A stretch of 64,000 bases of DNA from Candidatus Thalassarchaeum betae (GCA_003193925.1 PSPG01000003.1:32001-96000), one strand, 5' to 3'. Shown: positions 5,154 to 51,044, counted from the stretch's first letter. Notes: generated by a model from the sequence alone, not told the origin. Made by a program: numbers and translations.

Positions 5154-6134
5154 ATGACTGACGGCAGGGACGGCTTACTCATGCGCGCGGCGCTGAGTAT
5201 GGCCCTGTCGGTCCTGCTGATGGCCACCGCGCTATCCGGCTGCACGAGCATCAGCGGTATCGTCGGGGGCTCTGATTCCGTCGAAGTCCCAGTTTGGGAG
5301 GTCGGCGATTGGTGGCTGTACACCTTCTCGACTCCAGACTACACCGACGACACGGCCCGACTGGTCGTCGCCTCCGTCAGCGAGGAGGACAACTCCTCCT
5401 ACATGCTTGCCATCTCGAGTCTGAGCGAGGCTCGCAGGCACGCGGTGCTGAATCACAACCCGTTCCTCGGCAGGATGACCCATGAGGACCTGAGCGCGTA
5501 CGAGAACGGCGTTGCCCGGACTGTGATGGACTTCCCATTGGATGAGGACAAGACATGGGAATTCACGCTGTTCTCCACCGAATGGAGCTCCAGTGTCAGG
5601 GGCGTCTCCGGGAACTCGGTGACCATCGGCGCTTTCGCGGATGACGGCTCCCAACTCGAATACGTCTACGACGGGGACGTCGGCTTCTTCTCGGCCTTCT
5701 TCTGGACCGACGCCTCCGGTGTCGAGCAGATGCGGATGATGCTCGCCGACAGCGGCGAAGGGCATACTGGCGACGTCTACTTCGTCCGCGGCGGCGACCT
5801 GTACTCTGACGAGTGGGAGGACACCGGGCCGGATATCGAGATCCGTGACACCTTCTTCGTCGGTGACCATCCCTCAGACGGCGAGTGGGACGAGATGATC
5901 TACTTCCTCGACGCCGAGTGCGGCGGGGGCTCCTCCAGCATCACCCTGACACTGCGGGACCATGCCTCGCTCTCCGCCCTCGAGAGGATCTGGGGACCGG
6001 GCGCCAGCGAGAGCGGCACTCTCGGCACCATCCCCTACCCCAGTGAGGAGTACACGCTGACTCTGACTTTCACCGGAAACACGTACCTGCGGCTCATGAT
6101 AGCAGGCGGGATAACCAGTTCTTGGAGCCTCTAG
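5154..6134 (+). CDS. Hypothetical acidic exported lipoprotein
   Basis: Signal peptide ending in lipobox LSGC, followed by PVWEVGDWWLY. The start could be 5154 or 5181. Confidence 0.75.
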   Translation: MTDGRDGLLMRAALSMALSVLLMATALSGCTSISGIVGGSDSVEVPVWEVGDWWLYTFSTPDYTDDTARLVVASVSEEDNSSYMLAISSLSEARRHAVLNHNPFLGRMTHEDLSAYENGVARTVMDFPLDEDKTWEFTLFSTEWSSSVRGVSGNSVTIGAFADDGSQLEYVYDGDVGFFSAFFWTDASGVEQMRMMLADSGEGHTGDVYFVRGGDLYSDEWEDTGPDIEIRDTFFVGDHPSDGEWDEMIYFLDAECGGGSSSITLTLRDHASLSALERIWGPGASESGTLGTIPYPSEEYTLTLTFTGNTYLRLMIAGGITSSWSL

Positions 6135-6397
6135 AGGTAATCGAGCAGGTGGTCCGAGCCACCGACGAACACGGGCTCCTCGCCCCTGAGGTCGAACAAG
6201 ATCGGAACCGTGCGGTGCTTGGTCTCAGCGACTACGGCCTCCCTCAGACCCTCGTGACGATCGAGGTTGACCTCCGTGTAACTGAGGCCGTGCGCCTCCA
6301 GCGTCCTCGTAGCGAGAGTGCAGTACGGGCAGACAGTCTGACTGAAGAACAGGAAGTCCGTATCTGCGGACTCAAGGTACTCACGTACTCGTGACAA
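6131..6397 (-). CDS. Glutaredoxin
   Basis: CPYC active site, RTVPILF cis-Pro motif, FVGGSD. Probable TTG start at 6397 behind GAGGAGG, overlapping the upstream stop. Confidence 0.88.
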   Translation of the reverse strand: MSRVREYLESADTDFLFFSQTVCPYCTLATRTLEAHGLSYTEVNLDRHEGLREAVVAETKHRTVPILFDLRGEEPVFVGGSDHLLDYL

Positions 6398-9300
6398 CGG
6401 CCTCGTCCTCCTCGTACCATGCCTCCGGCCGCTCTCCGAAGTCGCCATCGAACTCGTCCTCGCCATCACCGAAGCGGCCCTCGAGGACCCTGTCGACCTC
6501 ATCGGGATCGATGAACCATAGCAGTATCACCGTGAACAGGGTTAGCGCTGCTCCTATGTACAGCGAGGTGGTGTAGTCGAACCTCTGTATCATCTCGCCT
6601 GCGAACAGGTAGGCGAACACCGCCGAGAGGTTGAACATCGACATGTAGGCGGTGAACTGGGTCCCGCCGGCCTTGCTGAAGGTCAGCCTCATCGCGACAG
6701 CTATGATGCAGATCCAAGCGATGCCGTTGACGATGGAGCGGGCGCAAAGGTACGTGGTCATCACCGCAGTATTCGTCCAGTAGTCCGAGAGAAGCGCCAT
6801 TCCGGCGTTTGCCAAGGCTAGGAATGTGAAGCCGACCATAGCGACCTCCCTGACGCCAAACTTGTCCCCGATTATGCCTCCGATGATCTGTCCGAGCATC
6901 ATGAAGGCGATGACGATGCCACCCATGGTGACGTTGTACTTCGTCTGCGACCAGCTGGCCTCGTTGATGAAGATGTCAACCACTATCGGGTCGGTGAAGA
7001 GGTATAGTTCGGCCAGCAGGCACAGGAAGATGAGCAGGAAGGAAGAGCGGGTGGAGAAACCCTGGACGATGTAGTAGGCGGTACTGGAGACGTTCCTCTT
7101 CGACGATCTCGACATGAAGAAGAACGGATTGGGGACATCCGGTAGGGATACACCGAGCCACTCTGCGATGAGGAGTAGGGCGGTCAGGGCGAAACTGACC
7201 TTAGTGAACAGGAGGAACGGGCCTCCGATTGCGCCGTACGTCGCGTTGGTCGAAACTAGGTGGAGGATAGCGAACGCACCGCCGATGAGCAGGGCCACTA
7301 TGCTCACCCAAAGCAGTGCCGCGGGGAGGCTGACATTGTCCCGATACAGGTTGGTGGCTACCCATCTCGCCCTGTTGAAACGGGGGTCCTCGTCCCCATC
7401 CCAAGGCAGTGCGATCTCGGCCTCTGGATCTTCCTCCGACTCCTCCTCCTGGGTCCACCAGAGGTCCTCCTGGCCTTCCTCTGGCTTGCTCCAAGGGAAC
7501 AGCCTGTCCCCGGGCCTCTCGCGCAGGAACAGCGGCATCAACATGATGAGAAGCAGCACAGGCAGTTGGACCATGATCGCTGACTTGATGCCGAAGGGGA
7601 CGACCAGCATCCCGAGGACCGCCCCTCCGAATATGATGCCGCCGCGCTTGGCGGCGAACATGAAGCCGTTCGCCTTGGCGACCTCGTGGGGCTCTAGCAC
7701 ATCGACGGCGAGAGCGTCTACGCTGACGTCCTGCAAGGACGAGAACAGGTTGTGGACGAACAGCAGTATGGTAACGAGTCCGATTGAGGCGTTGAGGTCG
7801 GGCACGAAGAGCAGGGTGGATAGGGAGACCACCATCCCGGTCTGGGCGAATAGGATCCACGGGCGCCTGATTCCGTATGCTGGGAATCGAATTAGGTCAA
7901 TCATGGGGCCCCAGATGAACTTGAACGTCCAAGGCAGGGCGATAGTCGCGAACAGTATGGCGATCTGCTCGGGCGAGGCCCCGTTGTCGACGAGGTAGGC
8001 GACGAAGGCCACGTAGGTGAACCCGGACGGCAGTCCCTGGGCGACGTACAGCACGCACAGAGAGACGAAGCGCCTCATCGTGCTCTCTGTGAGCGAATTG
8101 CCTTCTTTCCATGATCGCCGGCCTGCTCTGAGAACTTCCGGGATGCGTGCCGGGCTGTAGGCCCTGATGTCGAACTCTCCGTCTTCGCCGTCTGAGGATG
8201 AGAGGGCGGAGAGGAACTTCCGGTCCCAGCGCTCATTGATCATGATGTAACCAAGCAAGGCCAAGATCATCACGAATGGAATGAAGAAGACGTAGGAGCC
8301 AATAGAAACCAAGCCGACTGCGGCGCCAACGGCCGACATCTCATCGATGAGGATGACCCTGCGGGCATCTACCGGGGAGATGCTGTCATCGGACATGACC
8401 AGCCTGGCGTAGATGGTGGTGTTGCCCGACTGCTCGTGCGGGTCGAGCTTGATGCGCCAACTTGCCCAGTCCCCGTTCTTGGACAGGTCGGCAGCCCCCT
8501 GCCACTCCCCCCCTCCAACCTTTACCTCAACGAGGCCGGTTCCGGGTGCGGCACCTGATGCAGTCCCGGCGATGTAGCTCTCGTTGCCGATCTCCTGCAG
8601 CGTGACGACGTCCATCGAGACGTTTAGCGAGCGGTCTATGCTGCCAGCCGCCTCGACGAAGGCCACCGGGTCGGCCTGACCGTAACCGAACTCGTTGTCA
8701 GGTCGAGATTCGAGCAGGCTGCAGTCGTTGAATCCGGGGTCGTCCAGCAATGCGATCTCCCGCTCTATCGAGTGGGCCCCGATGATGTCCTTGAACTCGG
8801 TCGGGGTCATGTCCGGATTGGCCTGCATCATCAGCGCGGCTATTCCTGCCATCAGCGGTGTGGCCATGCTGGTGCCGGACTTGCTGGTGTAGCCGTCCTT
8901 AGTGGCTGCATCGGGGGCCATGATGTTCGAGCCTATCGTGGCGACATCTGGCTTCACTCGCAAATCGGAGGTGTAGCCCCTGCTGCTGTAAATGGCGAGG
9001 CTGAGGTCCTTGTCCAGGCTAGCCACCGTAACGGGCAGTCGGGCGTCGCCCGGGCTGTCGATGGTGTTGCAGCCTGCGAGGGTGGCACCGCCGAACTCGT
9101 TGCCCGCGGACAGCGTGGTGATGATGCCGGCCTCGACCACCATGTCCATCTGGCGGCTCCAGGCAGAGTTGCCGTCGTTGTCGACGTGGATCTCGAACTG
9201 CTGCTCGCCGAGCGAGGAGGTGAGGATGTCGATGCCATGACCACCATCCCACTGACGATCCTTGTTGTCGATAGCCCACTGGGCACCCTGCATGATGTCC

Positions 9301-10205
9301 TCGATGTCGCCGTCGCAGCACGACAGGATGTTGATCAGGAATGCTCCCGGTGCTGCTCCGATGTAGCGTAGCCCGGTGCTGGGGTCGGTCTGACCTCCTC
9401 CCGTTCCAGCAGCGATGCCGGCAACATGGCTGCCATGGTCACTGGAGTCGTAGGACTCAGCCGGATCTTGCTCCGCGTCGGTTATCACGGCGTCGAAGAA
9501 GGCGATGATCTTCGGGTCACAGTCGGCTGGTATTGGGTCGGGGTTGGGGTCTAGTGGATCAGGTGGGTCATCGAGGCAGGTGAACGGGTCGTCGTCCATG
9601 TCGTTGAGGCCCTCATGGTCACCGCGAATCCCGGTGTCTAGGATCGCGATCACCGAGCCGGTGCCATCGAGGCCGAGTTCGGTCCAGACCTGGTCGACCC
9701 CTAGGGTCGGGACGGCTTCGTGCATGTTCGGCTCGGCCAGGCCGAGGTCCTCGACCATCACGACCCCGGGAAGGGCGCGGACGCCTTTGGGGTCGAGGAG
9801 CGCTGCGAAGGGGACCGTGGCAGCGAACAGGTCGAGGTACTTGGCCCGGAACGTGACCTCGGCGCCAAGCCGCTCGAGGACCCTGACGTCGGCGTCGGTA
9901 GGATGGTGGTCGTAGTCGACGAACACCCTGGCGCTCCCGGCCGGTGCTCGGCGCCACCAGTCCTGCTGGACGTCAGCCGGCTGCTCGAGCAGCCACTCGA
10001 GCCTGTCATCCAGTTGGTTGGCGTCCTTGTCGCGGCTCCAGTAGAGCCACCAGTAGGCATGGATGTCGGATTCCACCGAGGCACTCCAGTTGCCGTCTGC
10101 GTCGAATCCGCCGCGCCCGTCCTCGGCCATTATGGTCGATGAGGCGAGTGGCAGCAGGAACAGCAGGACGACTGCTGAGGCCAACGCTGCACGCCGTCCT
10201 GCCAT
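6381..10205 (-). CDS. Fusion protein: secreted S8 subtilase plus AmpG-like MFS transporter
   Basis: Signal peptide, then S8 triad motifs AILDTG, DHGSHVAG and SGTSMATP, then a TM anchor. MFS motifs follow: LYVAQGLPSG, PWTFKFIWGPMID, RRPWIL, QDVSVDALAVD, GTQFTAYMSMFN. One uninterrupted frame; ATG 10205 chosen. Confidence 0.9.
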   Translation of the reverse strand: MAGRRAALASAVVLLFLLPLASSTIMAEDGRGGFDADGNWSASVESDIHAYWWLYWSRDKDANQLDDRLEWLLEQPADVQQDWWRRAPAGSARVFVDYDHHPTDADVRVLERLGAEVTFRAKYLDLFAATVPFAALLDPKGVRALPGVVMVEDLGLAEPNMHEAVPTLGVDQVWTELGLDGTGSVIAILDTGIRGDHEGLNDMDDDPFTCLDDPPDPLDPNPDPIPADCDPKIIAFFDAVITDAEQDPAESYDSSDHGSHVAGIAAGTGGGQTDPSTGLRYIGAAPGAFLINILSCCDGDIEDIMQGAQWAIDNKDRQWDGGHGIDILTSSLGEQQFEIHVDNDGNSAWSRQMDMVVEAGIITTLSAGNEFGGATLAGCNTIDSPGDARLPVTVASLDKDLSLAIYSSRGYTSDLRVKPDVATIGSNIMAPDAATKDGYTSKSGTSMATPLMAGIAALMMQANPDMTPTEFKDIIGAHSIEREIALLDDPGFNDCSLLESRPDNEFGYGQADPVAFVEAAGSIDRSLNVSMDVVTLQEIGNESYIAGTASGAAPGTGLVEVKVGGGEWQGAADLSKNGDWASWRIKLDPHEQSGNTTIYARLVMSDDSISPVDARRVILIDEMSAVGAAVGLVSIGSYVFFIPFVMILALLGYIMINERWDRKFLSALSSSDGEDGEFDIRAYSPARIPEVLRAGRRSWKEGNSLTESTMRRFVSLCVLYVAQGLPSGFTYVAFVAYLVDNGASPEQIAILFATIALPWTFKFIWGPMIDLIRFPAYGIRRPWILFAQTGMVVSLSTLLFVPDLNASIGLVTILLFVHNLFSSLQDVSVDALAVDVLEPHEVAKANGFMFAAKRGGIIFGGAVLGMLVVPFGIKSAIMVQLPVLLLIMLMPLFLRERPGDRLFPWSKPEEGQEDLWWTQEEESEEDPEAEIALPWDGDEDPRFNRARWVATNLYRDNVSLPAALLWVSIVALLIGGAFAILHLVSTNATYGAIGGPFLLFTKVSFALTALLLIAEWLGVSLPDVPNPFFFMSRSSKRNVSSTAYYIVQGFSTRSSFLLIFLCLLAELYLFTDPIVVDIFINEASWSQTKYNVTMGGIVIAFMMLGQIIGGIIGDKFGVREVAMVGFTFLALANAGMALLSDYWTNTAVMTTYLCARSIVNGIAWICIIAVAMRLTFSKAGGTQFTAYMSMFNLSAVFAYLFAGEMIQRFDYTTSLYIGAALTLFTVILLWFIDPDEVDRVLEGRFGDGEDEFDGDFGERPEAWYEEDEAVVTST

Positions 10206-10255
10206 GGGCAGGACGAAAGTGGGGTGGTGTTTGAGACTTAGGTCGTCATCAGTCG

Positions 10256-11125
10256 TCAACTGACCTTCATTCCCTGATTGTCGTAGTCCCACTCGATGAC
10301 TTCCCAGCCGGCCTCCTCGACCGCGGAAACCGCTGTACTGACGCCCGTCGGGGAGCATAGCAGGCCCACTGAGCCACCGCCGCCTGCGCCCAAAGCCTTC
10401 CAAGCCACCGCCGAGCCCGCCTCCAGAAGGGGGTCAATCACGCCTCGAAACGGGTCGTGGATCGCCGGATCCAGCATGTCGACTCCCTTGCAGACCTCAT
10501 TGAGGGCATGGACCACGAGTTCGCGCCGATCGCGTTGAAGCCCCTCGGCCATGGTTCGTGCGGCCCCTCTGATGAGATGCAGGCCGCCGATCACCGACTC
10601 GTCGCCCTGATCGTAGCGCTCCCAGACCCCGGAGTGCATGTCTCCTGAGGTGTGCTCGATTCCCGTATAGGCGATGACGAAGTGCTTGCGCAGCCAGTTC
10701 CTCGCCGAGCGCATCGGCTCGAACGGCATCTCCTCGACCTCGTCGCCGAGGAAGAGCAGGTGGTTGAATCCACCATGTGCGGCGGCCCACTGGTCCTGCC
10801 TGCCGCCGCGGTTCTCGAGCAGGGCCTCGAACTGGAAGGCGAGCTCGGCGATGTCCTCAGGGCTCTTGTCGCCACCGGCGATGGTCGCAATCAGTCCGAC
10901 GTTCATCGCCCCGCTCGTCCCGAGGCCCGATCCCGTCGGCATGTCGCTGCTGTACTCGACCCGTATCCGCCCGTCCGCGTCCTTCTCCATGATGCTCCGG
11001 ATGTATCGATTGATGGCGAAGTTGACGACCTCGCCCCCGAAATCGCCGCTGTACGGCTGGACGTCGGTCCAGCCTCCTGCGAGGTCGACGCGTACGGGAA
11101 CCACCACTTCCACGCGTTCCGCCAT
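10256..11125 (-). CDS. GHMP-family sugar kinase (HddA/fucokinase-like)
   Basis: PVRVDLAGGWTD, PTGSGLGTSG, GGRQDQ, KALGAGGGG. Confidence 0.85.
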   Translation of the reverse strand: MAERVEVVVPVRVDLAGGWTDVQPYSGDFGGEVVNFAINRYIRSIMEKDADGRIRVEYSSDMPTGSGLGTSGAMNVGLIATIAGGDKSPEDIAELAFQFEALLENRGGRQDQWAAAHGGFNHLLFLGDEVEEMPFEPMRSARNWLRKHFVIAYTGIEHTSGDMHSGVWERYDQGDESVIGGLHLIRGAARTMAEGLQRDRRELVVHALNEVCKGVDMLDPAIHDPFRGVIDPLLEAGSAVAWKALGAGGGGSVGLLCSPTGVSTAVSAVEEAGWEVIEWDYDNQGMKVS

Positions 11126-11176
11126 CGAACACAGCAAATCTCCGACCCATGAGAAGGATTCGGTCTGCGACCGAAA

Positions 11177-46743: not shown

Positions 46744-49461
46744 TCAGTCGCGACGGGTCGCGAAAGCTGCTCCCAGAAGCACAACCACTGCCATCAGCGC
46801 GCCGAAGCCCGGTAGCATCTCAGCAGTGGCGAACGAATCGGATGTGTACTGGTCTGCCCAGGTGTCGTACAGCTCGACCTGGACGCCCGGCATGAGATTG
46901 TCAATGACCAAAGTGTCCATGTCTGAAATCAATCCATCACCGTCGTAGTCTAGGTACTCGTAGGTGAATTCGTACTCGGCGATCGCGGGATCGACCGTAG
47001 CTGAGCCCTCGGTAAGTCCGTTCGAAGCGGCGATTGTGCAGTTCGAGATAGGGGGCTCGTTGCCCTCCTCGTCGGGCTCACCGCAATCGACAAGGAACCT
47101 GACCTCGAAGTCCGAGATAGGAGCGTTCAGGGTCTGGCCCATGACCATCATGGTGACTCGGGAGGGCTCGTCGTCGCCTCCTTCACCATCGTCATCGTCA
47201 CCATCGTCATCATCGGCACAGCAGAAGGCCCAGAAAATCTCGAACTCGTACAAATCCAGTCCGCCGCTGTCATCGTCGTCGAACATGTCAATGATGTCAG
47301 AGAGGCCATCAAAGTCTTCTTCTGACATCTCCTCGCCGTCCGTCTGATTATCGAAGTCAGCCCACTCCGAGGCAGTGAGTTGTCCGTCATCGTCAGCGTC
47401 CATCCAGTCGAAAATCTGCTCTGGATTCGCCTCCCCGGGATCGAACATGACTCCTATGCCATCGATGACGCACTGTACCTCGTTGATGTCGATCATGTCG
47501 TTGCCATCATAGTCGCAATCATCCCACAGAGCTGCAATCGAGTCCGAGTCGAGTTCGGGGTTCGATGGGTCGGACTCCCAGAAATCCTCGAACTCCTGGA
47601 AGGACACGTAGCCGTCTTCATTCGCATCTGCCGCCTCCATGGCCTCCTCGGGAGTCGGTGCGCCATCATCGTCATCGTCTGATCCCGGCCACTCATCTCC
47701 TCCAGAGGTCCACTCGTAGTCCTCGCTCTGTCCGAAGTCGTCAGTGCAGTGCCAGCCGTCATCCTCGTGGTCCTCGCAGTAATACCACCAAGTGTTCCAT
47801 TCTGTTTCTTCAGAATACTTGCAATACCAAGCGTTCTCTTCTCCATCTGCGTCTCCTTCCCACTCGCAGTGGCCGCCCTCGTAAGATTGCCAGTAGACGT
47901 CGTTTCCATCGTCGCCGCCATCGTCATCGCCAGAGGATTCCAACAATTGCGTAAATTCGTCGAGGTTCAGCAGGTCGTCCCCATCGATATCACCGCTGTA
48001 GAACCAGTTAGCCGTTCCCTCCTCGTCCTCGCTGGACATAGGAGGTTCCCCGTCCTGCTCGTTTTCGTTGTTGATGTAATCGATGAGTTCCTGCAGGCTC
48101 AGATAGCCGTCGTCGTCCGTGTCCATGTAGTCCATCATCTGCTCTGGATCCTCATCGCCACCATCGTCACCAAAGCCGCCCAACATGGCCCCGATGCCGT
48201 CGATGAAGCACTGCATCTCGTCGATGTCAATCAGGTCGTTGCCGTCATAGTCGCAATCATCGAACAGAGTTGCAACCTCTTCCGAATCGAGTTCGGGGTT
48301 TTCTGGATCGGATTCCCAGGCGTCCTGGAACTCCTGGTGGCTCATGTAGCCGTCACCGTCGGTGTCTACGTCCTCCATAGCCTCCTCGGGAGTCGGGATG
48401 TCGCCGCCTTCGCCGTCATCGTCAGACTCGTCGGAGCCGTCGCCACAGTCGTCCCAGCCGTCGTCGACCCAGTCCATCGGAATCTCGTTTCCGTTATCGC
48501 AGTAGAACGTGTCATCGCCGCCATCGTCCTCAGGCATTCCCTCAATGTGGAAATTAATCGGTATCGAGGTCCTCGGCAGGGTGTCGTCGACCTCGATGAC
48601 CACGGCGTCTCCCCACATCACTGTGTAACTGATTGAAGAGCTGGCAGACCCAGGCGCGTTCCTCGACCCGTAGTCGGTTGATATCTCGTAGGACATGAGG
48701 TCCTCGTTCTCATCGATCAGGATGACGATGGAGATGTCGTGCCCGGTGTCGTTGGTGTACTCGAGGGTCATGGTGTGGACCCCGGTCTCATCCTCGAAGG
48801 TGATTACGGGCTCCGTATCGGCAGGCATCTCGCTGGACAGGTCGCTAAGATCTCCCGTAGGCAGATCGAGGCCTATCTCTTCTCCGGTGTCGCCTGCATC
48901 AGACACACTCACCAGCGAGGATATGACATCCATGACGTCGGGGTCCGCATCCCTGGTCTGGTACGAGCCCATTCCGGCATTCTCAGCGGCCAACATCCCA
49001 CCCATGGTGTAGTGGATGTTGACGAGTTCGCCGACCTGGACCTGGATGTACTCGTAGGTCATGAAAGGCACCATCGACATGCCCATCTTCACGTAGACCG
49101 AATCGGTATCTAAATCGGCCATCACCATCTCTTCGATGACTGTGTCCGTCTGCATGTTCATGTCGGTATTCCACTCACTCATCGTGATTGACATTGAATA
49201 TCCCGCGCGCGGAATAATTTCGAGCATCTCGTCTATTTCCATCTGCTCGGTAGCGGCGGTCATGAACGCCTCCATCGAGGCTAGGTAGAAGCAGTCTCCC
49301 AACAGCTCCGCGGTGGCGTTATCGTCGTAGTTCTCGGCGTTCTCGTCCATGCAACCTAGGATATCGTCGACGATTTCCTCGATTTCAGGGCTGGAGGTGC
49401 ATCCGGCCAAGGGGGTAGCGATCAACAACAGGCTAGCAAGTAGAGCATACGCTCGGGTCAT
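46744..49461 (-). CDS. Acidic surface lipoprotein with 8-9 EF-hand loops, LDLa-like motif and PGF-CTERM signal
   Basis: Lipobox LAGC, GCMDENAENYDDNAT, repeated DxDxDG..S..E loops, FYCDNG...DCGDGSDE, and C-terminal LPGF + TM + RR. Confidence 0.85.
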   Translation of the reverse strand: MTRAYALLASLLLIATPLAGCTSSPEIEEIVDDILGCMDENAENYDDNATAELLGDCFYLASMEAFMTAATEQMEIDEMLEIIPRAGYSMSITMSEWNTDMNMQTDTVIEEMVMADLDTDSVYVKMGMSMVPFMTYEYIQVQVGELVNIHYTMGGMLAAENAGMGSYQTRDADPDVMDVISSLVSVSDAGDTGEEIGLDLPTGDLSDLSSEMPADTEPVITFEDETGVHTMTLEYTNDTGHDISIVILIDENEDLMSYEISTDYGSRNAPGSASSSISYTVMWGDAVVIEVDDTLPRTSIPINFHIEGMPEDDGGDDTFYCDNGNEIPMDWVDDGWDDCGDGSDESDDDGEGGDIPTPEEAMEDVDTDGDGYMSHQEFQDAWESDPENPELDSEEVATLFDDCDYDGNDLIDIDEMQCFIDGIGAMLGGFGDDGGDEDPEQMMDYMDTDDDGYLSLQELIDYINNENEQDGEPPMSSEDEEGTANWFYSGDIDGDDLLNLDEFTQLLESSGDDDGGDDGNDVYWQSYEGGHCEWEGDADGEENAWYCKYSEETEWNTWWYYCEDHEDDGWHCTDDFGQSEDYEWTSGGDEWPGSDDDDDGAPTPEEAMEAADANEDGYVSFQEFEDFWESDPSNPELDSDSIAALWDDCDYDGNDMIDINEVQCVIDGIGVMFDPGEANPEQIFDWMDADDDGQLTASEWADFDNQTDGEEMSEEDFDGLSDIIDMFDDDDSGGLDLYEFEIFWAFCCADDDDGDDDDGEGGDDEPSRVTMMVMGQTLNAPISDFEVRFLVDCGEPDEEGNEPPISNCTIAASNGLTEGSATVDPAIAEYEFTYEYLDYDGDGLISDMDTLVIDNLMPGVQVELYDTWADQYTSDSFATAEMLPGFGALMAVVVLLGAAFATRRD
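47240..48396 (-). repeat. Internal duplication of a four-EF-hand block (copies start 738 nt apart, at 48396 and 47658)
   Basis: PTPEEAME...WESDP.NPELDS...DDCDYDGND.IDI.E.QC.IDGIG occurs twice. The right-hand boundaries are approximate. Confidence 0.85.
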
Positions 49462-49509: not shown

Positions 49510-50745
49510 TCACTCCCAATTTCCGGTGATGTCGCTCCACATCAACAGTGCTAGGGCATCGAGCCCGGTTTGCATTCCTGCCTCAAGGCCTCCGCGCCCG
49601 CCCGCTAGGGTGTACAGGACATCGACCCTGTCGGTGGGAGCGTGCTTGGGAGACTGCTCACAGGTGTCGTCCTCCTCCTGCAGGAACTCGTGCATGCCGC
49701 GGAACCAGGTCGCCGGCCAGCCTCGCGAGATGAAGTTGTAGTGATCCGAGTTGCCTTTGGTGTCGTCTAGGACGACTACCCATTCGGTCGGGTACTCGAG
49801 ATGCTCGTACAGCACGACCCCCAGCCTGTCCTGCAGCGCTACTGCCTGCTCCCTCATCTCATCGGTCACGTTCACCCCTCGGTCCTCGTAGTACGACCAG
49901 TCCTCGACCGGCGAGGTGAACAGGTAGAGGTGGAAGTAGTCCTCGTCGCAGCCGCTGAGCTGGCTGACCAACTGGGTCTCGACAGGCCAGTTCAGGCCGT
50001 ACATGTCGAGATTGATGTATGTCGCTATCTCGACGCCTTCGGGTAGTGTGGTGACAAAGGTCTCGCTGCCATAGCCCGCACCCTCGGGGGAGCCGCTGCC
50101 CTGCCATTCCTCGTAGTCCCAAACTGCGAACTTCCAGGTGTGCTTCGGCTTGATATCCATTCCCGGTAGGGCCTCGGAGAGGTTCGACTGCCATTCCATC
50201 ATCAGGCGTGCGAGCTCTAGCACAGAGGCAGTTCCAGTGGCATCGTCGTAGGCGCCTTGGGAGGTGCACCCGGGGTACTCTATCCCTATGACGATCTGCT
50301 GGCTGTAGCAGATGGCGTCGTAGTGGCCTCCGACGACGATCCACGAGTCCGGGTCCTCGCCCTCCATCGTGGCGACGTAGTTGCGGCAGTCTTCGCATAT
50401 CTGGGTGGTGAAGTTCTGGACCTCGACCTCGTAGCCCAGATCCTCGAACCTCAGTTGTACGAAGTCGCCCGCATTGGCGTGGGCGACGGTGTCGATCTTG
50501 CGGTAGCCGAAGTCTGCTAGCGCCTCGATGTCGTCGGCTACGGCCGAAGCAGAGGGTAGTGAAGGCGGAGGGCTGTTCTCGAACTCCTCCTGCAATTCGT
50601 CCTCGAGGTCCTCGACGAACCCCTTGAGGCCGAAGTAGATTAGCGCTCCGGCGAGCCCGGCTAGGATGATGCATGCACCGACGATTATCGACGTGATCTT
50701 GAGCGCTGGCATGCCGTCAACTGGCTGGGTGTCCTGCTCCTCCAC
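49510..50745 (-). CDS. Membrane-anchored M28-family metallopeptidase
   Basis: N-terminal TM, VVGGHYD, GAYDDATG, WDYEE, YINLDM, NSDH, KHAPTD. Confidence 0.9.
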   Translation of the reverse strand: MEEQDTQPVDGMPALKITSIIVGACIILAGLAGALIYFGLKGFVEDLEDELQEEFENSPPPSLPSASAVADDIEALADFGYRKIDTVAHANAGDFVQLRFEDLGYEVEVQNFTTQICEDCRNYVATMEGEDPDSWIVVGGHYDAICYSQQIVIGIEYPGCTSQGAYDDATGTASVLELARLMMEWQSNLSEALPGMDIKPKHTWKFAVWDYEEWQGSGSPEGAGYGSETFVTTLPEGVEIATYINLDMYGLNWPVETQLVSQLSGCDEDYFHLYLFTSPVEDWSYYEDRGVNVTDEMREQAVALQDRLGVVLYEHLEYPTEWVVVLDDTKGNSDHYNFISRGWPATWFRGMHEFLQEEDDTCEQSPKHAPTDRVDVLYTLAGGRGGLEAGMQTGLDALALLMWSDITGNWE

Positions 50746-50798: not shown

Positions 50799-50883
50799 TG
50801 GTGCAGGGGACAGGATTCGAACCTGCGAAGCACTACGCACAGCGACCTGAACGCTGCCCCTTTGACCACTCGGGAACCCCTGC
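50799..50883 (-). tRNA. tRNA-Leu(CAG)
   Basis: GCAGGGG acceptor stem, anticodon arm CAGCG-TT-CAG-GT-CGCTG, long variable arm, GGTTCGAATCC, encoded CCA. Confidence 0.96.
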
Positions 50884-50959: not shown

Positions 50960-51044
50960 TGGTGCAGGGGACAGGATTTGAACCTGCGAAGCACTACGCA
51001 CTGGGACCTAAACCCAGCCCCTTTGACCACTCGGGAACCCCTGC
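50960..51044 (-). tRNA. tRNA-Leu(TAG)
   Basis: Anticodon arm CTGGG-TT-TAG-GT-CCCAG, GGTTCAAATCC, encoded CCA. Confidence 0.96.

Follow-up and report, generated by a model that had tools for sequence, protein, structure and literature searches.

A subtilase and a transporter in one reading frame

The window analysed here is a stretch of 64,000 nucleotides from Candidatus Thalassarchaeum betae (GCA_003193925.1, PSPG01000003.1:32001-96000), and this study concerns one gene on its minus strand, which joins a subtilisin-type protease of family S8 to a permease of the major facilitator superfamily (MFS). The open reading frame (ORF) covers 6381..10403 (-) and comprises 1340 amino acids (aa) when counted from a TTG start codon; an ATG at 10205, 50 nt downstream of the stop codon of a GHMP-kinase gene (10256..11137), gives a coding sequence (CDS) of 1274 aa and agrees with the N-termini of homologues that are 1264-1317 aa long. 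From its N-terminus, the protein consists of a signal peptide, an S8 subtilase, a beta domain, a transmembrane (TM) helix named TM0, a cytoplasmic linker and a 14-TM MFS module resembling AmpG and RhtX/FptX (Table 1). The first-pass annotation of this DNA had listed these elements in a single frame of 1274 aa, and the ORF list, Pfam, NCBIfam and hydropathy recovered every one of them, including the catalytic triad D190, H257 and S446 at the positions proposed. The neighbouring genes encode an H+-pyrophosphatase (H+-PPase), a glutaredoxin, the GHMP kinase and a DHBP synthase.

TM helices and signal peptide were located with our own Kyte-Doolittle hydropathy scan, not with a dedicated predictor, and two of the twelve core MFS helices, which fall under the hydropathy threshold, were placed by alignment to AmpG. 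The profile agrees with the orientation expected at first pass and is consistent with a protease outside the cell and both MFS ends inside, because a cleaved signal peptide followed by one helix before the MFS would give this arrangement, as MFS topology requires.

Table 1. Parts of the S8-MFS fusion gene in the window, and related proteins with the NDDGEEV ectodomain
Feature	Sequence	Position	Strand	Basis and remarks
S8-MFS fusion CDS	window	6381..10205	-	1274 aa + stop; ORF list, translation; 120/120 listed homologues full length with both domains
Signal peptide, residues 1-26, core 8-26	window	10128..10205	-	hydropathy peak 2.16; cleavage site inferred
Propeptide-like N-terminal region, residues 27-180	window	9666..10127	-	without Pfam match; dN/dS 0.05-0.23
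S8 catalytic domain, residues 181-509	window	8679..9665	-	PF00082 E 4.9e-42; best solved relative 3afg, E 4.9e-97
Catalytic residues D190, H257, N369 (oxyanion), S446	window	9636-9638, 9435-9437, 9099-9101, 8868-8870	-	invariant in 121/121
Extracellular beta-rich domain, residues 510-622	window	8340..8678	-	stops ~10-15 residues short of TM0; CBM_6 weak, 20.9 bits against cut-off 28.9
TM0, residues ~636-658	window	8232..8300	-	hydropathy 2.48; single membrane-crossing helix, part of the MFS module
Variable cytoplasmic linker, residues 659-709	window	8079..8231	-	38% mean identity
MFS N-bundle TM1-6, residues 710-895	window	7521..8078	-	Pfam/NCBIfam; motif A; AmpG-type Lys/Asp/Asp cluster K762, D826, D830
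Acidic central loop, residues 896-962, predicted cytoplasmic	window	7320..7520	-	19 D/E against 8 K/R over 895-962; 52% mean identity
Two extra TM helices, residues 963-981 and 996-1014	window	7164..7319	-	hydropathy peaks 2.55, 1.98; between the MFS bundles
MFS C-bundle, last six TMs, residues 1045-1234	window	6504..7073	-	second MFS_1 stretch; aligned to AmpG TM7-12
Acidic cytoplasmic tail, residues 1235-1274	window	6384..6503	-	17 D/E against 3 K/R; 70% mean identity
NDDGEEV ectodomain protein	L010	4362-6512	+	
NDDGEEV ectodomain protein	L009	3865-6018	+	
NDDGEEV ectodomain protein	L008	1442-3529	-	

The fusion is genuine and both modules are maintained

A frame of this kind might arise trivially, through an assembly chimera or through a stop codon lost in this genome alone. 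We exclude such an artefact, whose probability we judge negligible, because: (i), the 120 homologues listed from a word-indexed protein search (548 matches among 7999 scored candidates) are all fused, being 1189-1317 aa long, 69-99% identical and endowed with PF00082 as well as PF07690, and many species-level genomes hold fused frames, (ii), two contigs assembled from two sequencing runs that were not flagged as possible sources bridge TM0 (X14, 2843 nt, covering 6300-8739, and X13, 772 nt, covering 7648-8419) and, (iii), both halves evolve with low ratios of nonsynonymous to synonymous divergence (dN/dS, see below). The junction proposed at first pass is therefore real. The listed homologues were drawn from JGI, ENA, NCBI and Tara assemblies, the automatic name given by JGI being 'subtilisin family serine protease/MFS family permease', and the junction stretch 7700-8700 is present in DNA runs of seven studies at 92% or more of the sampled words. 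RNA-labelled libraries contributed two contigs of about 245 nt, at 8229-8470 and 8495-8738; they give a weak hint of transcription, too little for a claim that the gene is transcribed or that its mRNA is full length.

When the query is aligned with the 120 listed homologues, the S8 domain averages 87% identity to the query, the beta domain 84% and the MFS bundles 81% and 79%; the cytoplasmic linker averages 38% and the pair of extra helices 41%. Nei-Gojobori estimates of dN/dS between genus-level relatives, which are rough since dS is often near saturation, follow the same division: 0.013-0.084 for S8, 0.04-0.054 for the beta domain, 0.025-0.08 for the MFS N-bundle and 0.009-0.146 for the C-bundle, with 0.13-0.51 for TM0 and the linker. 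Given these low values and the invariant catalytic residues, both modules are kept as working proteins under strong purifying selection, as far as such rough ratios tell.

The protease module

Peptidase_S8 (PF00082) matches residues 181-509 over its entire length (profile positions 1-288 of 288) with 144.6 bits against a cut-off of 21.8, and the triad occurs in the Asp-His-Ser order of the family together with the oxyanion Asn. We infer that the module is an active protease that stays attached to the chain. Its best solved relative is an archaeal subtilisin-like protease (PDB chain 3afg), which we take to be pro-Tk-SP of Thermococcus kodakarensis. The likeness runs from the propeptide region through the catalytic domain: the S8 profile, from its position 79, aligns to residue 29 of 3afg, upstream of the catalytic domain. 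Presumably 3afg also bears a C-terminal beta domain, as the fusion does. It differs in being a soluble secreted enzyme without a TM helix or transporter. Unfused orthologues of the S8 module (667-671 aa) end in a TM anchor of their own, so anchoring alone fails to explain the fusion.

The MFS module is related to AmpG and RhtX/FptX

MFS_1 (PF07690) matches from residue 716 in two stretches (E 8.2e-29, 101 bits against a cut-off of 33.4), with weaker Pfam matches to BT1 and Acatn. The hallmarks of the superfamily are present, namely two six-helix bundles (6+2+6 helices by hydropathy) and motif A, of which the columns G153, R155, R156 and W158 of alignment A1 are invariant. The best NCBIfam match is the AmpG family TIGR00901 over residues 710-1231 (E 2.7e-38), with 131.7 bits against a cut-off of 350, and the relatives of this MFS that carry other ectodomains score 93.7-127.8 bits with the same model. 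RhtX/FptX (TIGR02718) comes close to AmpG in score, with 96.8 bits for the fusion and 96.8-118.3 bits over the archaeal MFS and its relatives, far under its cut-off of 356.15 bits; no siderophore context is seen near the fusion gene. A profile built from 54 relatives aligned over the whole 12-TM core to the solved AmpG chains 9c3f, 8zgz, 9j9z and 8zbb (E 2.3e-48 to 1.9e-42), over the N-terminal half only to SLC33A1 (E 7.6e-22) and over one half only to the POT transporters DtpB and DtpA (E 6.6e-9 to 7.6e-8). No match to PTR2 (PF00854) was found in the fusion protein or in the genome.

The first-pass annotation had called the permease AmpG-like, and this holds for the core as a whole; it does not extend to the scores, which stay below both cut-offs, nor to the transport cavity, where four of seven mapped residues are replaced. 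Cavity and titratable residues named for AmpG are Lys62, Asp125, Asp129, Lys132, Tyr152, Lys235 and Asp238 (PMC11568325), and we mapped them through the profile alignment to 9c3f with an inferred numbering offset of +3, leaving Glu336 out. Three of the seven are kept (Lys62, Asp125 and Asp129), Trp65 has a conserved equivalent as well, and the others are changed (Lys132 to Ala, Tyr152 to Lys, Lys235 to Glu and Asp238 to Leu). The two extra helices, also noted at first pass, are present by hydropathy and give the module the 14 TMs of AmpG. They are not a novelty: an internal extra helix pair is described as a variant of some AmpG orthologues, in P. aeruginosa as well as in A. baumannii (PMC11568325). 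Among our sequences the pair is present in relatives from the window's family and absent from 12-TM relatives of another family, f3. Altogether, the archaeal MFS family appears to be a separate branch between AmpG and RhtX/FptX.

The kinship with AmpG raises the alternative that the module takes up sugar-peptide debris, for example bacterial cell-wall fragments, after trimming by the protease. No solved structure comes closer than AmpG over the core as a whole, and the Lys/Asp/Asp cluster of the N-bundle, which contacts a sugar mimic in AmpG (PMC11568325), is conserved. However, Tyr152, Lys132, Lys235 and Asp238 are the residues that were replaced, the score lies far under the AmpG cut-off, and AnmK (PF03702), GH3/NagZ (PF00933) and Amidase_2/AmpD (PF01510) gave 0 matches each in this 91.8%-complete genome, so that muropeptide recycling is unsupported. 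We consider import of glycopeptides or muropeptides very improbable.

Distribution of fused and split forms

Among 41 relatives, full-length fused matches were found in the window's own genus. With a query spanning the junction (residues 400-900), at least 87 of 201 genomes from the window's family gave a contiguous match or two matches in one long frame, as counted over the listed rows (30 rows lie outside this count). These belong to at least seven of the family's 13 sampled genera (g1, g4, g11, g13, g15, g17 and g18). Split forms were found in about 20 of the 201 genomes, which are phylogenetically non-independent, and 67, chiefly of genera g2, g3, g12 and g14, gave no match at E 1e-40. A second fused cluster, in another order, is about 41% identical over the full length; it was found at full length in the five sampled genomes of genus g29 (Marine Group III), and its public names are 'Marine Group III euryarchaeote' and 'Candidatus Poseidoniia archaeon'. 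The fusion is thus conserved in many species of two orders, and the conservation that the first-pass annotation had proposed to check is borne out. At E 1e-120, no match to it was obtained in 58 genomes of family f3 or in some 296 genomes of the phylum's remaining families. A representative library of 1.84 billion proteins returned 26,352 matches; within the best 150, both domains occur together in two representatives of the fused clusters only.

Lineages with S8-MFS genes have genomes of about 0.8-1.7 Mb and the genera without it (g2, g3, g12 and g14) genomes of 1.6-2.2 Mb, a comparison confounded by phylogeny. Three genomes (G198, G099 and G135) hold two fused copies each, on different contigs.

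The split state is illustrated by the sister genome G023, where the syntenic order is H+-pyrophosphatase, a 320-aa secreted protein, an MFS gene and GHMP kinase. The MFS gene encodes 887 aa; behind a signal peptide and an ectodomain of about 210 aa without Pfam match (ectoX) come TM0, a linker and the same 14-TM MFS, at 49% identity. S8 is encoded by a separate orthologue of 679 aa on another contig, 62% identical and with its own TM anchor at the end. Up to about residue 622 the fusion tracks the S8 gene, and shortly before TM0 it passes to the MFS gene, which places the recombination breakpoint just N-terminal of TM0. In four genomes of genus g11 (G053, G093, G111 and G129) the S8 and MFS genes share a contig at a distance of about 15 kb, on opposite strands in G093 and G053.

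Two side observations concern this neighbourhood. A secreted or lipoprotein-like protein of 320-326 aa without Pfam match adjoins the MFS gene both in the window (5154-6134, +) and in G023 (L007, 2196-3158, +). The acidic tail of the fusion (6384-6503, -) has a similar counterpart in the ectoX-MFS protein of G023 (L007) and is absent from the 12-TM relatives of f3; it may be a binding or regulatory motif.

Exchangeable ectodomains on a common MFS

The S8 module and ectoX are two of five ectodomain types carried on the same N-terminal MFS slot, the others being a Peptidase_M28 domain, a cupredoxin and the NDDGEEV domain, named for one of its motifs; two of the five are peptidases. The M28-MFS proteins are single frames of 877-976 aa (P0130, L013-L018) from six genera of two families (g5, g12, g8, g9, g20 and g24). 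Free M28 orthologues found elsewhere are 70-78% identical and have their own TM anchor. The window itself holds a free M28 peptidase of 411 aa (49510-50745, -), with an N-terminal signal-anchor helix and 54% identity to the M28 part of M28-MFS.

The cupredoxin is halocyanin-like, has the complete set of type-1 copper ligands and is joined to the MFS through an acidic linker and TM0 (P0133; L041, L042); it was found at full length in seven genomes of four genera. In family f3, the orthologous MFS proteins have 716-717 aa, 12 TMs and the NDDGEEV ectodomain at their N-terminus, an archaeal domain of about 200 aa without Pfam match and with conserved Cys pairs. A sodium:solute symporter of G023 ends in the same domain (42-44% identity), which looks like a transporter-associated capture domain. 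No similarity of ectoX to the S8 ectodomain or to NDDGEEV was detected (BLASTP E >0.6; hhalign probability 0.1%), and a protein Atlas search with both Pfam-less ectodomains returned unnamed archaeal clusters only.

A single TM0 sequence class is common to nearly all forms (ectoX-, M28-, cupredoxin- and NDDGEEV-MFS; shuffle z 8-22), from which we conclude that TM0 belongs to the MFS module. Two fused proteins, L022 and L026, carry a different class; descent of their TM0 from the free-S8 anchor was considered and, at a shuffle z of only 2-4.5, set aside, so that their TM0 is taken simply as a different class.

Distant MFS relatives from metagenomes (P0151, P0237 and P0253; 31-38% identity) carry C-terminal domains instead, either a 3-keto-disaccharide hydrolase domain, FG-GAP repeats or an MGH1-like GH with GH65C and F5/8C. 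Crude hydropathy suggests a 13th helix before the C-terminal domain of P0151 and P0253, the latter from a cluster of 117 members. The glycoside-hydrolase-like domains among them hint that enzyme fusions recur in this MFS clade.

A crude scan for large multi-TM proteins in this genome yielded 12 other ORFs (FtsX, MMPL, P-type ATPase, STT3, PHO4-PhoU, ABC-permease, MFS-like, and one without Pfam match), none of which pairs a hydrolase with a secondary transporter. One locus considered as a second long MFS fusion (G000:C13; L035 3531-4776) was rejected: the gene is of the ordinary MFS kind and appears to be broken by a frameshift, which could reflect a pseudogene or an assembly error, and a family-B DNA polymerase gene follows directly downstream. 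A further transporter with a large loop domain is the 665-aa MFS-like protein of G000:C9 (L036 823-2820), which has a D-rich insert of about 170 aa between its halves.

Repeated joining of the two modules

Quick IQ-TREE trees of the MFS and S8 parts, unrooted with respect to direction, separate with full support a 14-TM MFS clade (16 fused and 4 ectoX proteins) from a 12-TM clade (6 M28 and 2 NDDGEEV proteins). The fused state changes three times on the MFS tree and three times on the S8 tree, at least two changes being forced by starred branches in each; for want of direction in the trees, fusion and fission events are not told apart. These transitions in both trees, and the existence of two TM0 classes, argue that S8 and MFS were joined more than once. 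The modules also recombine, as indicated by pairs in which they diverge unequally: the S8 parts of L019 and L020 are near-identical and their MFS parts 73% and 56% identical to the query, and L002 differs from L021 by a dS of 1.46 in S8 and 0.22-0.34 in the MFS.

A proposed coupling of hydrolysis to uptake

Our best reading, which we hold tentatively and with slightly less than even confidence, is that the protein combines a surface protease and an importer in one chain for hydrolysis-coupled peptide uptake. After Sec export and removal of the signal peptide, the subtilisin-type endopeptidase and the beta domain would lie outside the cell, tethered by some 10-15 residues to TM0, and a variable linker of about 50 residues along the cytoplasmic face would lead into the 14-TM MFS related to AmpG and RhtX/FptX. 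The protease would cleave dissolved or particulate proteins at the cell surface, and short products would arise within nanometres of the outward-facing MFS cavity, to be imported before they diffuse off. Proximity would in this way raise product capture. The MFS itself is probably proton-coupled and would import peptides or amino-acid-containing products.

Hydrolysis-coupled uptake is favoured because: (i), two unrelated classes of peptidase occupy one MFS slot, S8 having been joined to it more than once, (ii), the free enzymes are already anchored and both modules are constrained, (iii), the nearest characterised relatives of the MFS, AmpG and RhtX/FptX, are importers and, (iv), no other scanned multi-TM ORF of the genome joins a hydrolase to a secondary transporter.

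Several observations weigh against this reading. The MFS scores below the AmpG and RhtX/FptX cut-offs and is not a member of the POT/PTR peptide transporters, and with its replaced cavity residues its substrate is unreadable from homology. The genome encodes one Opp/Dpp-type binding protein, so that a second route of peptide import exists. Genera g4 and g11 hold both fused and split species; fusion is not indispensable, since the two forms interchange within these genera. The cupredoxin and the two Pfam-less ectodomains are unexplained by peptide capture. Finally, the cytoplasmic linker is long and variable, so TM0 need not pack on the MFS and the protease need not lie 'above its own importer', as pictured at first pass.

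In the main rival explanation, TM0 and the MFS serve as a handy, recombination-prone anchor and expression context for various exoproteins; S8 and MFS would each work on their own, unrelated substrates without depending on one another, and their joining would be close to neutral. This would account for a slot with functionally unrelated ectodomains (S8, M28, cupredoxin and two Pfam-less domains), for the interchange of fused and split states inside genera, for recombination between modules (L002/L021 and L019/L020) and for the poor conservation of the long linker. It sits less easily with the free S8 and M28 enzymes, whose own TM anchors mean that no anchor is gained; with two of five ectodomain types being peptidases and S8 having been joined at least two times; with the lack of any other secondary transporter that anchors an enzyme in the crude scan of the genome; and with the excess of fused over split forms among the (non-independent) family genomes. 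We regard this anchor explanation as possible but rather unlikely.

The direction of transport could also be the reverse: the MFS might move outward a small molecule (a cofactor, metal chelate or modifying group) on which the tethered ectodomain depends or acts. The detectable relatives include Acatn/SLC33A1, and SLC33A1 carries acetyl-CoA out of the cytosol; moreover, both M28 and the cupredoxin are metalloproteins, and metal chelates are the cargo of RhtX/FptX relatives, so that such a supply could cover more ectodomain types than peptide import. Yet S8 proteases require calcium only, which is abundant in seawater, the full-length matches are to importers (AmpG and RhtX/FptX) with SLC33A1 matching over the N-terminal half only, and the neighbouring genes include no candidate cargo or biosynthetic genes. 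An export function thus seems improbable to us.

A broader and more doubtful proposal is that the Poseidoniia (Marine Groups II and III) possess a cassette importer, in which recombination would swap the extracellular module on one AmpG/RhtX-like MFS with TM0; an S8 endopeptidase, an M28 of aminopeptidase type, a blue-copper domain and two capture domains, both uncharacterised, would take turns there, each version tuning the harvest. The S8 and M28 forms would then be uptake machines that couple hydrolysis to import in a single chain, and archaea with one membrane would have in them a counterpart to the 'selfish' uptake of bacteria.

Relation to known systems

Protease and transporter are also found in one polypeptide in the peptidase-containing ABC transporters, where a C39 peptidase is fused to an ABC bacteriocin exporter and cleavage is coupled to transport. 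There a cysteine peptidase in the cytoplasm works with an exporter driven by ATP on a precursor peptide of the cell itself, a direction and logic opposite to those proposed for S8-MFS. AmpG shares with the fusion a homologous 12-TM core, motif A, equivalents of Lys62, Trp65, Asp125 and Asp129, 14 TMs and, in P. aeruginosa and A. baumannii, the internal position of the extra pair (PMC11568325); the fusion differs in its score under the TIGR00901 cut-off, its four replaced cavity residues, its N-terminal ectodomain with TM0 and an archaeal host in which AnmK, NagZ and AmpD were not found.

Coupling of a hydrolase to an importer has published, non-covalent precedents (PMC13507758, PMC4597091). 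In A. baumannii, a periplasmic Ig-like domain of AmpG1 is reported to bind the lytic transglycosylase Slt (Kim et al. 2026, PMC13507758): here too, an extracytoplasmic domain of an AmpG-family importer recruits the enzyme that generates its substrate and couples cleavage to import, a coupling which for the fusion is proposed. The enzyme is however separate and non-covalently bound, the Ig-like domain lies between TM11 and TM12 and the substrate is peptidoglycan (PMC13507758), whereas in the fusion the enzyme is a protease in the same chain, N-terminal behind an extra TM. The extracellular domains of mammalian PepT1 and PepT2 bind trypsin, and clustering of proteolysis at the site of peptide uptake was proposed (Beale et al. 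2015, PMC4597091). These are likewise MFS importers with an extracellular domain linked to proteolysis; they belong to the POT family, the protease is soluble, its binding is transient, electrostatic and micromolar, and removal of the domain left transport unchanged (PMC4597091).

Every Marine Group II (MGII) genome studied by Orellana et al. (2019) is reported to have 1-4 genes for extracellular S8 proteases, and the parts of the paper that treat extracellular peptidases mention only S8, M28 and M14 (PMC6864105). No description of an S8-MFS fusion was found by full-text literature searches or by term searches within MGII genomics papers, in keeping with the first-pass annotation, which knew of no characterised example; supplementary tables, such as the peptidase tables of PMC6864105, lie outside this coverage and may list the gene. 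The protease-MFS architecture is genuine, widespread and uncharacterised, and it is part of a modular ectodomain-MFS system.

The carbon and nitrogen cycles of the sea pose the open question of how a one-membrane cell without a periplasm holds on to what its exo-enzymes release. Archaea of Marine Groups II and III, which count among the ocean's most abundant heterotrophs, are uncultured and thought to live on proteins and peptides. If our reading is true, product retention would have a simple physical solution in a covalent protease-importer that many species conserve, and it is directly testable because a single gene holds both parts. Sister species with the fused and the split form make the exchangeable slot a natural experiment, and it brings to light two uncharacterised transporter-associated ectodomains, ectoX and NDDGEEV.

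Other features of the window

Further along the window, a gene at 46744-49461 (-) encodes an extremely acidic secreted protein of 905 aa with repeated D-rich motifs of calcium-binding appearance, whose C-terminal end resembles what we take to be a PGF-CTERM sorting signal. Two tRNA genes lie at 50802-50883 (-) and 50963-51044 (-), with Rfam RF00005 scores of 48.9 and 53.1 bits.

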